NCBI RefSeq assembly: GCF_022846255.1
Contig: NZ_AP025682.1
Length of the DNA: 64,000 bases
Source: Escherichia coli
GTDB taxonomy: Bacteria; Pseudomonadota; Gammaproteobacteria; Enterobacterales; Enterobacteriaceae
Strand: one strand, 5' to 3'
Shown here: positions 11,158 through 22,300 of the stretch, piece after piece
Numbering within the stretch: position 1 is the first letter of the stretch
Layout: every line of letters begins with the position of its first letter
Position numbers and translations under genes: made by a program
Notes under the pieces: generated by a model
Told to the model about the DNA's origin: nothing
Database searches by the model: none
Seen by the model: only the letters and a program-made list of their open reading frames with translations

Positions 11158-14170
<3,013 letters not shown>

Positions 14171-14690
14171 ACACTGCCGGATGCGGCACAAGTGCCTTAT
14201 CCGGCCTACAGGTCAGCAACAGTTGTAGCCCTGATAAGACGCGACAGCGTCGCATCAGGCATTGATTGCCGGATGCGGCACGAGTGCCTTATCCGGCCTA
14301 CGGGTCGGCAATAGTTGTAGGCCTGATAAGACGCGACAGCGTCGCATCAGGCATTGATTGCCGGATGCGGCACGAGCGCCATATCCGGCCTACGGGTCGG
14401 CAATAGTTGTAGGCCTGATAAGACGCGACAGCGTCGCATCAGGCATTGATTGCCGGATGCGGCACGAGTGCCTTATCCGGCCTACGGGTCAGCAACAGTT
14501 GTAGGCCTGATAAGACGCGACAGCGTCGCATCAGGCATTGATTGCCGGATGCGGCACAAGTGCCTTATCCGGCCTACGGGTCGGCAATAGTTGTAGGCCT
14601 GATAAGACGCGACAGCGTCGCATCAGGCATTGATTGCCGGATGCGGCACGAGTGCCTTATCCGGCCTACGGGTCGTGCATCCGACAACAC
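14171..14690. repeat. BIME tandem array (REP pairs) filling the rhaA–rhaD intergenic region
   Basis: Unit gccggatgcggcac(a/g)agtgccttatccggcctacgggtc(a/g)gcaa(c/t)agttgtaggcctgataagacgcgacagcgtcgcatcaggcattgatt recurs with a ~93-bp period; starts at about 14177, 14270, 14363, 14450, 14543 and 14636. Confidence 0.8.
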
Positions 14691-14712
14691 CGAATTAACA
14701 GGAACACAGAAC

Positions 14713-15537
14713 ATGCAAAACATAACCCAGTCCTGGTTTGTCCAGGGAATGATCAAAGCCACCACCGATGCCTGGCTGAAAGGCTGGGACGAGCGCAACG
14801 GCGGCAACCTGACGCTGCGCCTGGATGACGCCGATATCGCACCATATCACGACATTTTTCACCAACAACCGCGCTATATCCCGCTCAGCCAGCCCATGCC
14901 TTTACTGGCAAATACACCGTTTATTGTCACCGGCTCGGGCAAATTCTTCCGTAACGTCCAGCTTGATCCTGCGGCTAACTTAGGCATCGTAAAAGTCGAC
15001 AGCGACGGCGCGGGCTACCACATTCTTTGGGGGTTAACCAACGAAGCCGTCCCCACTTCCGAACTTCCGGCTCACTTTCTCTCCCACTGCGAGCGCATTA
15101 AAGCCACCAACGGTAAAGATCGGGTGATCATGCACTGCCATGCCACCAACCTGATCGCCCTTACCTACGTACTGGAAAACGACACCGCGGTCTTCACTCG
15201 CCAGCTTTGGGAAGGCAGCACCGAGTGTCTGGTAGTGTTCCCGGATGGCGTTGGAATTCTGCCGTGGATGGTGCCCGGCACGGACGAAATCGGCCAGGCG
15301 ACCGCACAGGAAATGCAAAAACATTCGCTGGTGTTGTGGCCCTTCCACGGCGTCTTCGGCAGCGGTCCGACACTGGATGAAACATTCGGTTTAATCGACA
15401 CCGCAGAAAAATCAGCACAAATATTAGTGAAGGTTTATTCGATGGGCGGCATGAAACAGACCATCAGCCGTGAAGAGTTGATAGCACTCGGCCAGCGTTT
15501 CGGCGTTACACCACTCGCCAGTGCGCTGGCGCTGTAA
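14713..15537 (+). CDS. rhaD: Rhamnulose-1-phosphate aldolase
   Basis: [39 protein letters not shown]...; 274 aa from the internal Met; the listed ORF start lies inside the BIME array and is spurious. Confidence 0.9.
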
Positions 15538-15546
15538 GGAGCAAAC

Positions 15547-15861
15547 ATGATCCGCAAAGCCTTTGTCATGCAGGTAAACCCCGACGCCCACGAAGAGTAT
15601 CAGCGTCGGCATAATCCCATCTGGCCGGAACTGGAAGCCGTGCTGAAATCTCACGGTGCGCATAACTACGCCATCTATCTCGACAAAGCGCGTAATCTGC
15701 TATTTGCCACGATAGAGATTGAATCTGAAGAGCGGTGGAATGCGGTTGCCAGTACAGATGTTTGCCAACGTTGGTGGAAGTATATGACCGACGTTATGCC
15801 AGCTAACCCGGATAACAGCCCAGTCAGTAGCGAGCTGCAAGAAGTGTTTTACCTACCTTAA
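15547..15861 (+). CDS. rhaM: L-rhamnose mutarotase
   Basis: [46 protein letters not shown]...; 104 aa. Confidence 0.9.
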
Positions 15862-15901
15862 TGAGTTGCGGTGCCGGAAAATATCCAGCACCGCGCCTTC
15901 A

Positions 15902-17296
15902 TCAGAAGAAGTATTTAAAGCGAACGCGTGCGCCGTAACGGTCATCAGTATCATCACCGTGTTTTTTATCACCGTCGCTATCCAGAATGGAGTAATAAGT
16001 ACCAAGGTAAATATTAAAGTTCTCCATATCCATCACATTAGCGAACTGGTAAGACGCATGAATGGTGTGAATGGTGTACGTCCCTTCATCATCAATCCAG
16101 CAGTCGTTATCACAAACTACACCGCTGAATTCATCAATCTTATTGTGCGCGTAGATATAACCCAGCTCGAAACGTTTCCACAGCGCGTTAATCCCGGCAG
16201 TGAAATCTTTCTCATTATTAGCATCTAAATAGGCGGTATTAAGATTAACCACGACGCCATTTTCCGGATCCGTTTTCAGGCCATTCCAGGTCATGCTCAT
16301 ACCATAGCCGGTACGATCGGACTGATCGACAAAATTACCCTTGCTATCGGTATAACCATAAGCATTATTTACCATATTCGCTTCCATCGCTGCGGAAACG
16401 GTGAATTCTTCCGTCGGCGACCAGGCAATTACCGGACGCAGATAAGCAACATTTTTCTGCTGTTCCATATCGCGTCCATGATAATTACCGTCGTTATATA
16501 AAGATGTTCCATCTTCCAGTAACGTGTTTAATTCAAAATACCAGTTATCGAGTTGTTTGCTGACGAGGAAATTACCGCCAGCGTTAGAACGTCCGCGGCC
16601 CTCTTTCATCATATAGATATAACCGCTGCCATCGTCATAAAGATCGTTCGCAGTATTACCGGAATGTTCAACAAAGGTATCCTGACTCAGCGGGAACATA
16701 TCGTAGGCTTCAAAACGGCCTACTTTGACCTTCCAGTCGTTTTCTTTGCCAAAGAAGAAAACCGCATCATCGATATTTACTGAACCGTGCATATCCCCCA
16801 GCGGTTGTACGGAGAACCCAGCGAAATAGCCATTATCCAGTTTTCGCATACCATCAAAACCTAACAGAATACGACCATTGAGATTCCACTGTTCATTAGT
16901 GGGATCGCTATTCACATCAGCGTTGGTCATTGCCAGCAGGCCATGATTACTTTCCGCATCCATATTAAATTCTACGTCACCGTAGATTTTTAAATCGCCA
17001 TACCCTGAAAGCAGGAGATTAGGCGGGGTGGCGTTTTTCTTCTCTGACTCCGTCGTTGATTGACCGTTTACCGGCGTGTTGCCCTGTGCGATCTTAATTT
17101 CGCGGATCTCGGCGGCTTGTTGTGTCTGAAGCTGTTTAACCTGCCCCTCTGCTTTTGCTGCCCGCATTTCTGCCGCTTCCAGGCGTTCTTCCAGCAATGC
17201 CATGCGTTGTTCCAGCGTTAAATGCTGTGTTTTTGCCATACCGGTACTACATGCCAATAATAAACCGATGGCTAAAGATAATGTCGATTTTTTCAT
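15902..17296 (-). CDS. Outer-membrane carbohydrate porin with N-terminal coiled-coil (LamB/ScrY-like); not in K-12 at this locus
   Basis: Signal peptide MKKSTLSLAIGLLLACSTGMA, then a coiled-coil (LEQRMALLEERLEAAEMRAAKAEGQVKQLQTQQAAEIREIK), then a beta-rich body ending in aromatic ...RFKYFF typical of OM beta-barrels; lower-GC gene. Confidence 0.65.
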   Translation of the reverse strand: MKKSTLSLAIGLLLACSTGMAKTQHLTLEQRMALLEERLEAAEMRAAKAEGQVKQLQTQQAAEIREIKIAQGNTPVNGQSTTESEKKNATPPNLLLSGYGDLKIYGDVEFNMDAESNHGLLAMTNADVNSDPTNEQWNLNGRILLGFDGMRKLDNGYFAGFSVQPLGDMHGSVNIDDAVFFFGKENDWKVKVGRFEAYDMFPLSQDTFVEHSGNTANDLYDDGSGYIYMMKEGRGRSNAGGNFLVSKQLDNWYFELNTLLEDGTSLYNDGNYHGRDMEQQKNVAYLRPVIAWSPTEEFTVSAAMEANMVNNAYGYTDSKGNFVDQSDRTGYGMSMTWNGLKTDPENGVVVNLNTAYLDANNEKDFTAGINALWKRFELGYIYAHNKIDEFSGVVCDNDCWIDDEGTYTIHTIHASYQFANVMDMENFNIYLGTYYSILDSDGDKKHGDDTDDRYGARVRFKYFF

Positions 17297-17649
17297 TATT
17301 TACGTTCCCTGAAATAAAGGAGACCCTACGCTTTCCAAAAGGAATACGTATATAGAGAAATATAAGGTGTGCACTTTCGAATTTTTAATCCAACTTCAGC
17401 AGGCCGATGGATAGTATCCCGCTGCATAATATGAGTAAATCCGCTGATTTCCTGGAACGTGAGGAATATAACAATAGTGCCGTTTTTAACTAAATATCGT
17501 AAAAAATATTAGATATAATTCACGCTGACTCATAAGCCACAAATATAAATAACGCTTAAACAAATTATCTGAGACATTTTAACATTCACAAAATCATTAA
17601 ATAATGATACTTTATTCACAAAATTTATCCTTCACTCTGCTTTATATTG

Positions 17650-18204
17650 TTACGACTTCGTGACATATCCGTGCTCATCACAAACCCGCCCCGCGATTAC
17701 AATTAACTGAAATATTTCATCGACCATTTCGTTGTAATCGCATAACGCTCGTGGAAATGAGTCTTCGGCCATCCAGCTTGAGTTTGCGTCCTGAAGTTGC
17801 TCTTTATCCCAGTCAGAGTACGGGACTTTATCTCTGATGCGGCGAACGTATTTTTTAGCCTCGAGTTGATACTGGCCTGCCGAATTAATAAACGAGAAAC
17901 TCATGCCGCTTTTATCCGCTTCTTTGGCTTGCGCCACCAGCGTTTCCAGTTCAGACACTTTCTTCATTGCCGCTTCTGCATCTAACTTATCTTGCGATAT
18001 CAGGTTATTAATTTGTTTCGCTGAAATCATGACTGCCAGAGAGTAGTAGTGGAATGTTTTCCCTTTCGCAAACGCATCGTCTTTATAATTTTCCTGGGTG
18101 TAATATTTATCCATTTCGTTAATGGTATTACCCAACGCTACGGCAGCATCAATATAACTCACCGCCACGCCATCAATAGGTTGCAGCGCAGGCGTTAACG
18201 CCAC
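17650..18204 (-). CDS. Hypothetical protein (~184 aa, GTG start); sits where K-12 has yiiG but has no signal peptide
   Basis: ORF MALTPALQPIDGVAVSYIDAAVALGNTINEMDKYY...; in-frame stop 27 codons upstream leaves no room for a longer N-terminus; function unknown. Confidence 0.4.
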   Translation of the reverse strand: MALTPALQPIDGVAVSYIDAAVALGNTINEMDKYYTQENYKDDAFAKGKTFHYYSLAVMISAKQINNLISQDKLDAEAAMKKVSELETLVAQAKEADKSGMSFSFINSAGQYQLEAKKYVRRIRDKVPYSDWDKEQLQDANSSWMAEDSFPRALCDYNEMVDEIFQLIVIAGRVCDEHGYVTKS

Positions 18205-18291
18205 TACACGCGTTTTGTTTATGAGAAAATAACAAAATTCACGAAATGAATAAGTCCTGTAATTTAATATATATCGCAGGACTTATTTTAA

Positions 18292-19125
18292 TTAATTGCT
18301 CAAACGCTGCGGATGGGTATAAACCGTTGCCCGACCCGGTTTACAAAAGCCCACCAGCGTCAGATTACAGCGCTCAGCCACTTCTACAGCAAGTGTGGTC
18401 GCGGCAGACACCGCAAACAAAATCTCTACGCCGCACATCGCCGACTTTTGCACCATTTCATAACTGGCACGGCTGGAAACCAGCACCGCACCTTGCTGCC
18501 AGCTTTCCCCTTCTTGTGACCGGCGGCCTAACAGTTTGTCCAGCGCCACATGGCGACCCACGTCTTCATGCCCGCCGACCAGTTCGCCAGATGGCAACAT
18601 CCATGCAGCGGCGTGAGTACAACCAGTCAGTTGCCCCACTGGCTGGAAATCATTGAGATGACGTAATGCATCATCCAGTTTGTTGAGATCAAACATCTGG
18701 GTGAACGGCAGCGGCTGCACCGGTTTACCGATATCGTTAAGCTGTTCTACACCGCATACGCCACAGCCCGTACGTCCCGCCAGCGCCCGGCGGCGCTCCT
18801 TCAACCCCATAAAGCGGCGGCTGGAAAGCTCAATTTGTACTTCCAGGCCATTACAGGAAGGAACGACATCCATGCCGAAGATATCGCGCGGGCTTTCGAT
18901 AATTCCTTCGGAAAGCGAAAAACCGAGCGCAAAGTACTCAAGGTCTTTGGGCGACGCCATCATCACCACATGCGAAATACCGTTGTAGACCAGCGCAACG
19001 GGAACTTCTTCCGCCACCTCATCTAACCGTGGGTGTTGTAAATCATCACGCCGCCATAACTCAATTTGACGAACACCTGTGATATTTGTCACATTTTCGA
19101 TTTCTTTTTGCTGTGTTTTTTTCAC
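18292..19125 (-). CDS. fdhD: Formate dehydrogenase sulfurtransferase/accessory protein FdhD
   Basis: [59 protein letters not shown]...; 277 aa; divergent from fdoG. Confidence 0.9.
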
Positions 19126-19318
19126 TTTCTCTTAACCAGATAAGAACACACACACCAACATTATGGTATTCTGTTACAAACCCTTCCTGGATGGAGGGAA
19201 ATTGAGCCAATTCTGGACCTTTGCGGCCCCTTCCGCAAAGAAAAATAACTCCCACTCCCTGCACACTCAGCAAGCGAATGTAAATGGGACGTGACAATGT
19301 CGAAACAAGGAGCAATCC

Positions 19319-22300
19319 ATGCAGGTCAGCAGAAGGCAGTTCTTTAAGATCTGCGCTGGCGGTATGGCAGGCACCACGGCGGCGGCACTGGGTTTTGCAC
19401 CCAGCGTAGCACTCGCGGAAACCCGGCAGTATAAACTGCTGCGCACCCGCGAAACCCGTAATACCTGCACCTATTGTTCCGTAGGCTGTGGGCTGTTGAT
19501 GTACAGCCTCGGTGACGGAGCAAAAAACGCCAAAGCATCTATCTTCCATATCGAAGGTGACCCGGATCACCCGGTCAACCGCGGAGCACTTTGTCCGAAA
19601 GGCGCTGGCCTGGTGGATTTCATCCACTCCGAAAGCCGTCTGAAGTTTCCGGAATACCGTGCGCCAGGTTCTGATAAATGGCAGCAAATCAGTTGGGAAG
19701 AGGCGTTTGATCGCATCGCCAAACTGATGAAAGAAGACCGCGATGCAAACTACATTGCGCAAAACGCCGAAGGCGTGACTGTTAACCGCTGGCTCTCCAC
19801 CGGGATGCTGTGTGCTTCCGCGTCGAGTAACGAAACCGGCTATTTAACGCAAAAATTCTCCCGCGCGCTGGGTATGCTCGCGGTCGACAACCAGGCGCGT
19901 GTCTGACACGGACCAACGGTAGCAAGTCTTGCTCCAACATTTGGTCGCGGTGCGATGACCAACCACTGGGTCGACATCAAGAATGCCAACCTCGTCGTGG
20001 TGATGGGCGGTAACGCCGCTGAAGCTCACCCGGTCGGGTTCCGCTGGGCGATGGAAGCCAAAATTCACAACGGCGCGAAGCTGATTGTGATCGATCCTCG
20101 CTTTACGCGTACGGCGGCGGTGGCTGACTACTATGCCCCTATCCGTTCCGGTACTGACATTGCTTTCCTGTCAGGCGTATTGCTGTACCTGCTGAACAAT
20201 GAAAAATTCAACCGCGAATACACCGAAGCCTATACCAACGCCAGCCTGATCGTGCGTGAGGATTACGGCTTTGAAGATGGCCTGTTCACCGGCTACGACG
20301 CGGAAAAACGCAAGTACGATAAGTCCACCTGGACTTACGAACTGGACGAAAACGGCTTCGCCAAACGCGATACTACCCTGCAACATCCACGTTGCGTGTG
20401 GAACTTGCTGAAACAGCACGTTTCCCGCTACACGCCAGATGTGGTTGAAAACATCTGTGGTACGCCAAAAGACGCATTCCTGAAAGTCTGCGAATACATC
20501 GCCGAAACCAGTGCTCACGATAAAACAGCGTCGTTCCTCTACGCCCTCGGCTGGACGCAACACTCCATCGGTGCGCAGAACATCCGTACGATGGCGATGA
20601 TCCAGTTGCTGCTCGGCAATATGGGGATGGCTGGCGGCGGCGTTAACGCCCTGCGCGGTCACTCCAATATTCAGGGGCTGACCGACCTGGGGCTGCTGTC
20701 GCAGAGTCTGCCAGGTTACATGACGTTGCCAAGCGAGAAGCAGACCGATCTGCAAACTTACCTCGCTGCCAACACGCCAAAACCACTGCTGGAAGGCCAG
20801 GTCAACTACTGGGGCAACTACCCGAAATTCTTCGTCTCAATGATGAAGGCATTCTTTGGTGATAAAGCGACGGCGGAAAATAGCTGGGGCTTTGACTGGT
20901 TGCCGAAGTGGGATAAAGGCTACGACGTCCTGCAATACTTCGAGATGATGAAAGAGGGCAAGGTCAATGGCTATATCTGCCAGGGCTTTAACCCTGTTGC
21001 CTCATTCCCGAACAAAAACAAAGTGATCGGCTGTCTGTCGAAGCTGAAATTCCTCGTAACTATCGACCCGCTGAACACTGAAACCTCTAACTTCTGGCAG
21101 AACCACGGTGAGCTGAACGAAGTTGACTCGTCGAAGATCCAGACCGAAGTGTTCCGTCTGCCATCGACCTGCTTCGCGGAAGAGAACGGTTCAATCGTTA
21201 ACTCTGGTCGCTGGTTGCAATGGCACTGGAAAGGTGCGGACGCCCCGGGGATTGCGCTGACTGATGGCGAGATCCTCTCCGGTATCTTCCTGCGCTTGCG
21301 CAAGATGTATGCCGAACAGGGTGGTGCGAACCCGGACCAGGTGCTGAACATGACCTGGAACTACGCCATTCCGCATGAGCCATCTTCAGAAGAAGTGGCA
21401 ATGGAGAGCAACGGCAAAGCGCTGGCCGATATTACCGACCCGGCAACCGGTGCGGTTATCGTCAAGAAAGGCCAACAACTTAGCTCGTTCGCCCAACTGC
21501 GCGATGACGGTACAACCTCCTGTGGCTGCTGGATTTTCGCCGGTAGCTGGACGCCGGAAGGCAACCAGATGGCGCGTCGTGATAACGCCGATCCGTCTGG
21601 CCTCGGTAACACGCTGGGCTGGGCATGGGCATGGCCGCTTAACCGCCGCATTCTGTATAACCGCGCCTCCGCAGATCCGCAGGGTAACCCATGGGATCCG
21701 AAGCGTCAGTTGCTGAAATGGGACGGCACTAAGTGGACCGGCTGGGATATTCCGGATTACAGCGCAGCGCCTCCGGGCAGCGGCGTAGGGCCGTTTATCA
21801 TGCAGCAGGAAGGCATGGGACGTCTGTTTGCCCTCGATAAGATGGCGGAAGGTCCGTTCCCGGAACACTACGAGCCGTTTGAAACGCCGCTGGGAACTAA
21901 CCCGCTGCATCCAAACGTTATCTCGAACCCGGCGGCGCGTATCTTTAAAGACGACGCCGAAGCATTGGGTAAAGCCGATAAGTTCCCGTATGTCGGAACC
22001 ACCTATCGTCTGACCGAGCACTTCCACTACTGGACCAAACACGCGCTGTTGAATGCGATTTTGCAACCAGAGCAGTTTGTGGAAATCGGGGAGTCGCTGG
22101 CGAATAAACTTGGCATTGCCCAGGGCGATACTGTGAAAGTCTCCTCCAACCGTGGCTATATCAAAGCCAAAGCGGTAGTGACCAAACGTATTCGCACGCT
22201 GAAAGCAAACGGCAAAGATATCGATACCATCGGTATTCCGATTCACTGGGGCTATGAAGGTGTTGCGAAAAAAGGCTTTATTGCCAATACGTTGACGCCA

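Follow-up and report, generated by a model that had tools for sequence, protein, structure and literature searches.

We analysed a 64,000-nucleotide stretch of Escherichia coli DNA (contig NZ_AP025682.1; hereafter the 64-kb window, to which all coordinates refer) and focused on the interval between rhaM and fdhD, with E. coli O157:H7 and K-12 MG1655 as the reference strains for comparison of the locus. According to the list of open reading frames (ORFs) and the window sequence, the interval reaches from the rhaM stop (15861) to the end of fdhD (18292), that is exactly 15862-18291, and it contains a 464-amino-acid (aa) ORF, a 353-bp spacer and a 184-aa ORF. An earlier reading made from the letters alone (the sequence-only reading) took the first ORF for a ScrY/LamB-like porin and the second for a short hypothetical gene, both occupying the position of frvABXR-yiiG in K-12. 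Its sequence-level statements (the ORFs, the spacer, a repeat within the spacer and the gene content of K-12) all hold. We find that the 464-aa ORF is an intact porin gene of the RafY family, that the 184-aa ORF is what is left of yiiG, and that the interval as a whole is a deletion-prone, ordinary variable region of the E. coli chromosome.

An intact porin gene of the RafY family

The 464-aa ORF starts with ATG and lies on the minus strand at 15902-17296, convergent with rhaM. Its product matches the Pfam family PF16966 (Porin_8, "Porin-like glycoporin RafY") with an E value of 2.7e-154, residues 104-464 covering positions 1-372 of the 372 in the model, and PF16966 is likewise matched by all 43 of the homologues that were aligned. 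The LamB-family PF02264 gave no match to the protein in the Pfam search at E <= 10. RefSeq names the product "carbohydrate porin" in every matching genome, and NCBIfam assigns no family to either the porin or the 184-aa ORF. Compared with the porin of the plasmid operon rafR-rafA-rafB-rafD-porin, which is also 464 aa long, the protein is 76.5% identical in amino acids and the gene about 86% identical in nucleotides. The porin is a member of the RafY family encoded by an intact, rafY2-type gene. Its family, annotation and presence in E. coli are already known; it was noted before in O157:H7, which lacks rafRABD and carries a rafY homologue annotated as rafY2 (PMC4809568).

Four parts can be told apart along the protein. 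The first 21 residues (17234-17296, minus strand; MKKSTLSLAIGLLLACSTGMA, read from the translation) look like a signal peptide of the Sec type with predicted cleavage between GMA and K, and the A/KT site is kept in the consensus of the homologues. Codon 16 (17249-17251) is a Cys in an LLLAC context that loosely fits a lipoprotein lipobox; porin orthologues in other genera have LLLVAN at this position and no Cys, and lipidation of Cys16 seems less likely than a cut by signal peptidase I after GMA. The second part is a putative periplasmic coiled coil at residues ~25-70 (17087-17224, minus strand), where a continuous heptad pattern has hydrophobic residues at 11 of 14 a/d positions and the AlphaFold2 model places a single helix over residues 28-70. 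Sugarporin_N (PF11471), the ScrY-type N-terminal domain, is matched weakly here (E 0.08) and at E <= 1e-3 in 16 and <= 0.1 in 40 of the 43 homologues, and a profile searched against the PDB returned matches to generic coiled coils only. A low-confidence linker follows at residues ~71-97 (17006-17086, minus strand), with a predicted local distance difference test score (pLDDT) below 50 over residues 53-98. It is the most variable part of the gene relative to O157: the block 17000-17099 (residues ~66-99) has 19 mismatches per 100 nt whereas other 100-nt blocks of the gene have 1-8. The remainder, residues ~98-464 (15905-17005, minus strand), is a predicted beta-barrel of 16 strands with a long loop at 195-240 and a C-terminus ending in ...RFKYFF. 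The sequence and the model thus bear out an outer-membrane porin with signal peptide, coiled coil, barrel and ...RFKYFF end as first described, both the signal-like N-terminus and the barrel being present. Against other E. coli alleles the ratio of nonsynonymous to synonymous divergence (dN/dS) is 0.07-0.10, with dS up to 0.18, which indicates purifying selection on the porin.

The number of barrel strands bears on the kind of channel. The AlphaFold2 model, of moderate quality (mean pLDDT 64), has 16 long strands, and upon fold search the best structural matches were 16-strand porins, eleven of which score above ScrY (rank 12). Searches of PDB sequences matched no ScrY or LamB chain, either with the single sequence or with a profile, and found no barrel homologue. 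TCDB family 1.B.15 is itself listed with 16 strands (PMC4827864). We favour a RafY-type barrel of 16 predicted strands, any likeness to ScrY being confined to the N-terminal coiled coil. The likeness to ScrY in the sequence-only reading may hold for the N-terminal extension, and its 18-strand ScrY/LamB-like barrel is not supported in view of PF16966 instead of PF02264, the 16-strand model and the low rank of ScrY.

A yiiG remnant and three deletions

The second ORF is present at 17650-18204 on the minus strand as a mechanical, GTG-initiated frame of 184 codons. It had been regarded as hypothetical, yet BLASTP aligns it with residues 139-346 of O157 YiiG, a DUF3829 lipoprotein, at an E value of 3e-102 with a 45-residue gap, and it contains two fragments of DUF3829 at positions 67-117 and 158-282 of the 285 in the model. 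Neither a complete DUF3829 domain nor a lipoprotein signal was found in the ORF, the N-terminal 138 residues being deleted. The yiiG remnant proper covers 17717-18204 (minus strand); the ORF extends beyond it into former intergenic DNA, into which its last 21 codons are read-through. Compared with YiiG of K-12 or O157, the ORF lacks residues 1-138, 189-233 and the last five, and the start codon, lipoprotein signal and upstream region of the gene are gone. No Shine-Dalgarno sequence precedes the GTG in the window sequence. RefSeq marks a pseudogene "missing N-terminus" at this place in strain 3-72, whose arrangement is the same.

Comparison with O157 resolves the locus into three deletions, the junctions of which carry microhomologies of 4-10 bp. 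The largest, of 4,791 bp, extends from a point 18 nt ahead of the frvA start codon into the extreme 3' end of yiiG; it removed frvA-frvB-frvX-frvR together with the last yiiG codons and left a TCAT microhomology at 17717-17720. An in-frame deletion of 135 bp within yiiG occurred between GTTTTCCCTT direct repeats (junction at 18056-18065). The third, of 478 bp between AACGCCAC repeats (junction at 18197-18204), took the 5' end of yiiG, with start codon and lipoprotein signal, and the DNA upstream of it. Strain N41 retains the 135-bp segment but has a 1-nt frameshift, so that decay of yiiG is continuing. Judging from its sequence, the 184-aa ORF is a non-functional yiiG remnant shaped by three microhomology deletions.

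States of the locus in E. coli

In K-12 MG1655 the gene order is rhaM, frvA, frvB, frvX, frvR, yiiG, fdhD with no porin, as the sequence-only reading had stated. Here 111 bp stand in place of the 1,723 bp of O157 that hold the porin and its flanks, and this 111-bp filler has no match in the loci that were fetched. The order in O157:H7 is rhaM-porin-frvABXR-yiiG-fdhD, so that both sets of genes are present side by side. To place these states in the population we used 5,426 complete E. coli genomes and scored presence as coverage of at least 80%. The porin gene is covered in 2,556 genomes, being absent from about 53%, and frvABXR in 4,185. One match spanning at least 80% of the rhaM-fdhD segment of the window, as fits the arrangement with the porin and without frv, was found in 1,166. 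Subtraction of these counts, as opposed to direct cross-tabulation, gives about 1,390 genomes (roughly a quarter) with both the porin and frvABXR and about 2,800 in a K-12-like state.

The coexistence of porin and frv shows that the presence of the one and the absence of the other are independent, and therefore that the porin did not replace frvABXR-yiiG. The apparent replacement is a set of independent deletions in a variable interval. Other outcomes are seen in further strains: 06-00048 has a partial frv deletion with yiiG intact, while in HS30-1 and EM18-18-42 an IS1 element abuts a truncated porin gene on one side and directly adjoins fdhD on the other, frvABXR and yiiG being entirely gone. 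The IS1-associated deletions of the two latter strains are independent events in the same interval (L059, 3001-3790; L060, 2501-4351).

The porin in other genera

At least 52 porin loci were found in species-representative genomes, and the porin is convergent with rhaM in at least five of those listed: Citrobacter sp. R56, Kluyvera genomosp. 1, Pseudocitrobacter faecalis, Klebsiella spallanzanii and Superficieibacter electus. The genes upstream of it vary. In Citrobacter sp. R56, Kluyvera and Pseudocitrobacter they are azlC/azlD-like genes together with the gene of an XRE-type regulator, beyond which Kluyvera also carries frvRXBA. Upstream of the porin K. spallanzanii has rafR-rafA-rafB with a galactoside acetyltransferase-like gene, and Superficieibacter has rafA-rafB, two IIC genes of a cellobiose-type phosphotransferase system and a family-4 glycosidase gene. 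Enterobacter sp. ENT03 has its genes arranged as fdhD, frvRXBA, porin, rafR-rafA-rafB, and more distant relatives of the porin adjoin a permease and a GH32 hydrolase.

In the window, a tblastn search of the DNA upstream of the porin turned up no trace of raf, XRE or azlC genes. The interval holds no raf gene, the porin is not the last gene of a raf operon, and no transporter or catabolic gene lies beside it, as had been stated from the sequence. The raf-operon context is a feature of RafY, the founding member, and not of the protein family. The gene of the window is the positional orthologue of the porin genes that adjoin rhaM in other genera. Since these are at times accompanied by rafR-rafA-rafB, the E. 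coli gene, which has no inner-membrane transporter or hydrolase of its own, is an orphan, and the most economical reading would be that the porin is an old resident of the position adjacent to rhaM.

The spacer and a predicted porin promoter

The spacer (17297-17649) has an A+T content of 68% and consists of two parts of different history. The porin side, from 17297 to about 17585, is absent from K-12. Homology common to K-12 and O157 begins at O157 position 11187, corresponding to about 17586 of the window, and the DNA from there to about 17717 is the former upstream region of frvA. By alignment, a relic of the frvA promoter and leader can be delimited at 17586-17720 (plus strand), with a lineage-specific 38-bp deletion after 17619. 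No RNA family was detected within the spacer by Rfam, and a generic scan for promoters and terminators did no better than on shuffled sequences.

Two copies of the repeat ATTCACAAAAT, and no more, are present in the 64-kb window (17584-17594 and 17614-17624). The 38-bp deletion borders the end of the second copy, for which O157:H7 has ATTCACAAGAT, a 10/11 match. An exact direct repeat of 11 bp arose in about 5% of simulated 353-bp sequences of matched composition (p ~0.05), which, with the 10/11 match in O157, leaves the repeat only marginally above chance. We rejected the two copies as a regulatory pair on account of this marginal p value, the deletion edge and the position of both copies in the frvA upstream relic, and we attach no function to the repeat in this strain. 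A CRP-like match at 17605-17620 is at chance level.

On the porin side, a footprint conserved across genera points to a promoter of the porin's own. It was defined in nine sequences from E. coli, Citrobacter, Kluyvera, Pseudocitrobacter, Enterobacter, Superficieibacter and two unclassified Enterobacteriaceae. The element TGTTA-N6-TCACG (17458-17473, minus strand) has half-sites that are invariant in all nine and a variable N6, the other columns of the block having a mean top-base frequency of 0.57. The spacing downstream is also kept across genera: exactly 18 nt lie between TCACG and the next conserved motif, TTTAC(T), and another 16-17 nt separate this motif from a TAnTAT-like hexamer. In the window the predicted promoter (17411-17439, minus strand) comprises a -35 element TTTACT at 17439-17434, a 17-nt spacer and a -10 element TACTAT at 17416-17411, with a predicted start at ~17404. 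The region 17300-17499 that holds it has a single mismatch to O157 in 200 nt. If the last hexamer is the -10 element, the upstream element is centred at about -61.5, where class I CRP sites classically lie. Its agreement with the CRP core TGTGA-N6-TCACA extends to 8 of 10 positions, the pattern by itself being no rarer than chance in the window, and we predict that the porin promoter is a class I CRP promoter. An assignment of the element as a RafR operator was rejected, since the operators of rafA are different (CCGAAACGTTTYGG pairs). We also considered a lacO1-like site that has one additional base in its centre; since conservation is confined to the outer pentamers, a CRP site seemed to us the likelier of the two.

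Flanking genes and further observations

On the left of the interval lies rhaM, encoding L-rhamnose mutarotase (15547-15861, plus strand), and on the right fdhD (18292-19125, minus strand), both identified by ORF and by annotation in matching genomes. A 7-bp inverted repeat, GCGGTGC ... GCACCGC with a 13-nt loop, is located at 15868-15894, in the DNA that separates the stop codon of rhaM from that of the convergent porin gene; neither strand has a T-run after it, and it was not among the hits of the terminator scan. The gap between rhaA and rhaD (14157-14767) is filled by five tandem units of 92 bp, each of which matches Rfam RF02564 (naRNA4, a nucleoid-associated RNA derived from repetitive extragenic palindromes) above the gathering score on the minus strand; the units give rise to spurious ORFs in the ORF list. 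By annotated gene coordinates this gap measures 542 bp here, 174 bp in O157 and 450 bp in K-12 and strain 3-72. In the divergent region between fdhD and fdoG (19150-19348) there is a sub-threshold match to Rfam RF02778, the FdoG-1 5' untranslated region thermometer (31.9 bits against a gathering score of 50; E 3.6e-5). For window positions 1-25000 the best identity among the complete E. coli genomes is only 98.9% over the 25 kb, so the lineage of the window is poorly represented among them; the best matches are mostly mouse isolates (3-72, 8178, DEF10), together with human, bat and horse isolates.

Discussion

The above results can be combined with what is known of RafY into a working mechanism. 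The porin would be exported via its Sec signal peptide and would form the predicted 16-strand barrel, probably as a trimer, with a ScrY-type coiled coil reaching into the periplasm. By analogy with plasmid RafY a wide general-diffusion channel is expected, through which di- and trisaccharides such as raffinose, sucrose and melibiose could pass the outer membrane and reach the inner-membrane permeases that happen to be present, with no dependence on a dedicated inner-membrane system. The gene's own promoter would be activated by cAMP-CRP bound at about -61.5, leading us to expect expression of the porin when preferred sugars are absent. For trimer formation, pore properties, substrates and CRP dependence this is what we infer; it is joined to the observed family membership, gene integrity, purifying selection, deletion anatomy, population distribution, synteny and conserved promoter footprint. 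Taken as a whole, a variable interval with one intact RafY-family porin, frv deleted, yiiG dead and the porin acting as proposed is the best explanation of the locus, and we put its probability at roughly 0.8.

Several points weigh against this explanation. The structural model is only moderately good, and its low-confidence loop at 195-240 could hide extra strands. TGTGA-N6-TCACA-like matches with two mismatches number 25 in the window where 25.9 are expected, so that the CRP assignment has its basis in the conservation between genera and in the spacing. The porin gene is lacking in about half of E. coli genomes, which makes the porin dispensable, and whether K-12 lost it or originally lacked it is judged only from the other genera. 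We found no experiments on the chromosomal porin in the searchable literature, and expression and pore properties are for this reason extrapolated from plasmid RafY.

Other explanations were weighed against the same evidence. That a cassette made up of the porin and a novel small ORF replaced frvABXR-yiiG, with the porin serving the rhamnose locus or the yih sulfoquinovose cluster, would agree with the gene content of K-12 and with the porin abutting rhaM in E. coli and several other genera. We nevertheless hold it to be very improbable: porin and frvABXR-yiiG occur together in O157:H7 and in the genomes counted by subtraction, the small ORF is yiiG, the convergent orientation precludes co-transcription with rhaM and goes with a conserved promoter footprint of the porin's own, and the relatives are linked to raf or GH32 sucrose-type genes, not to rha. 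Rhamnose is moreover a monosaccharide that passes general porins. The role in rhamnose or sulfosugar uptake that the sequence-only reading had ventured thus finds no support. Hardly any more credence can be given to the idea that the 184-aa ORF encodes a functional, shortened cytoplasmic DUF3829 protein. All 184 codons are open and the internal 135-bp deletion is in frame, but the native start codon, the upstream region and the lipoprotein signal went with the 478-bp deletion, no Shine-Dalgarno sequence stands before the GTG, and the C-terminal codons come from former intergenic DNA by read-through. The same remnant is frameshifted in N41, and RefSeq marks it as a pseudogene.

Two further possibilities concern the porin itself, and we consider each of them unlikely, if less remote than the two above. 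A substrate-specific channel of the LamB/ScrY type, with an 18-strand barrel and a greasy slide for sugar binding inside, would be in keeping with the ScrY-type Sugarporin_N match in many homologues and with the RefSeq name "carbohydrate porin"; it is at odds with the lack of any PF02264 match at E <= 10, with ScrY and LamB chains going unmatched even by a profile, and with a 16-strand model for which eleven 16-strand porins outscore ScrY. Alternatively the orphan porin could be a silent relic in E. coli, without present function and on the way to loss. Partner genes are lacking, about 53% of complete genomes do not have the porin, IS1 truncates it in some strains, and the XRE-type regulator gene that precedes it in other genera is missing in E. 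coli. This is hard to reconcile, however, with a dN/dS of 0.07-0.10 at dS up to 0.18, with 2,556 genomes that cover the gene, with one mismatch to O157 across 17300-17499 where the promoter is predicted, and with a promoter footprint kept across genera.

The main value of this work is a correction of annotation: the hypothetical ORF becomes a yiiG pseudogene and the porin joins a family that is described and routinely annotated. We found no published characterisation in E. coli of this strain-variable porin, which is under purifying selection and has a conserved, predicted CRP-type promoter. Experiments would be worthwhile only on this promoter and on the orphan porin itself, the rest being ordinary pseudogene decay. 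One speculation, which we regard as doubtful though still more plausible than the alternatives just discussed, is that the orphan porin is a catabolite-controlled alternative porin whose wide channel, when expressed, would alter outer-membrane permeability to oligosaccharides and bulky antibiotics and could then compensate for loss of OmpF/OmpC. If this were true, it would be comparable to GlyP in carbapenem-resistant Klebsiella pneumoniae, and it would be kept by about half of E. coli including frv-less lineages.

Among known systems the nearest is plasmid RafY of the pRSD2-type operon rafRABD-rafY (PF16966, TCDB 1.B.15). RafY is reported to be a wide channel for general diffusion that helps raffinose, sucrose and maltose to be taken up, and the title of Andersen et al. 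reportedly calls it a general diffusion pore. The two proteins have the same length of 464 aa, the 76.5% identity given above and full-length PF16966 matches, and they share the N-terminal helical extension and the C-terminal ...RFKYFF. In contrast to RafY, the porin of the window is chromosomal, sits between rhaM and fdhD without rafR, rafA, rafB or rafD, and has a different signal peptide; its upstream region is free of the RafR operators found upstream of rafA and has the other conserved element instead. The ScrY sucrose porin and the LamB maltoporin (PF02264, TCDB 1.B.3) have 18 strands as against 16 in the model of the window porin, and their barrels have no detectable sequence homology to it. 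DcaP of Acinetobacter baumannii (PDB 6eus), which is only 12% identical in sequence to the window porin, is a member of another family and is said to take up dicarboxylates, not sugars. GlyP of K. pneumoniae is, like the E. coli protein, of the RafY family; it can act as an alternative porin and nutrient channel, improving fitness when OmpK35/36 are lost, and is encoded in an operon of LacI-type regulator, permease, hydrolase and porin that is repressed by GlyR (bioRxiv 10.64898/2026.03.29.715108). The E. coli gene differs in standing alone with no local regulator evident. The Klebsiella relative indicates that porins of this kind can matter for competition for nutrients and for the fitness cost of antibiotic resistance through porin loss.

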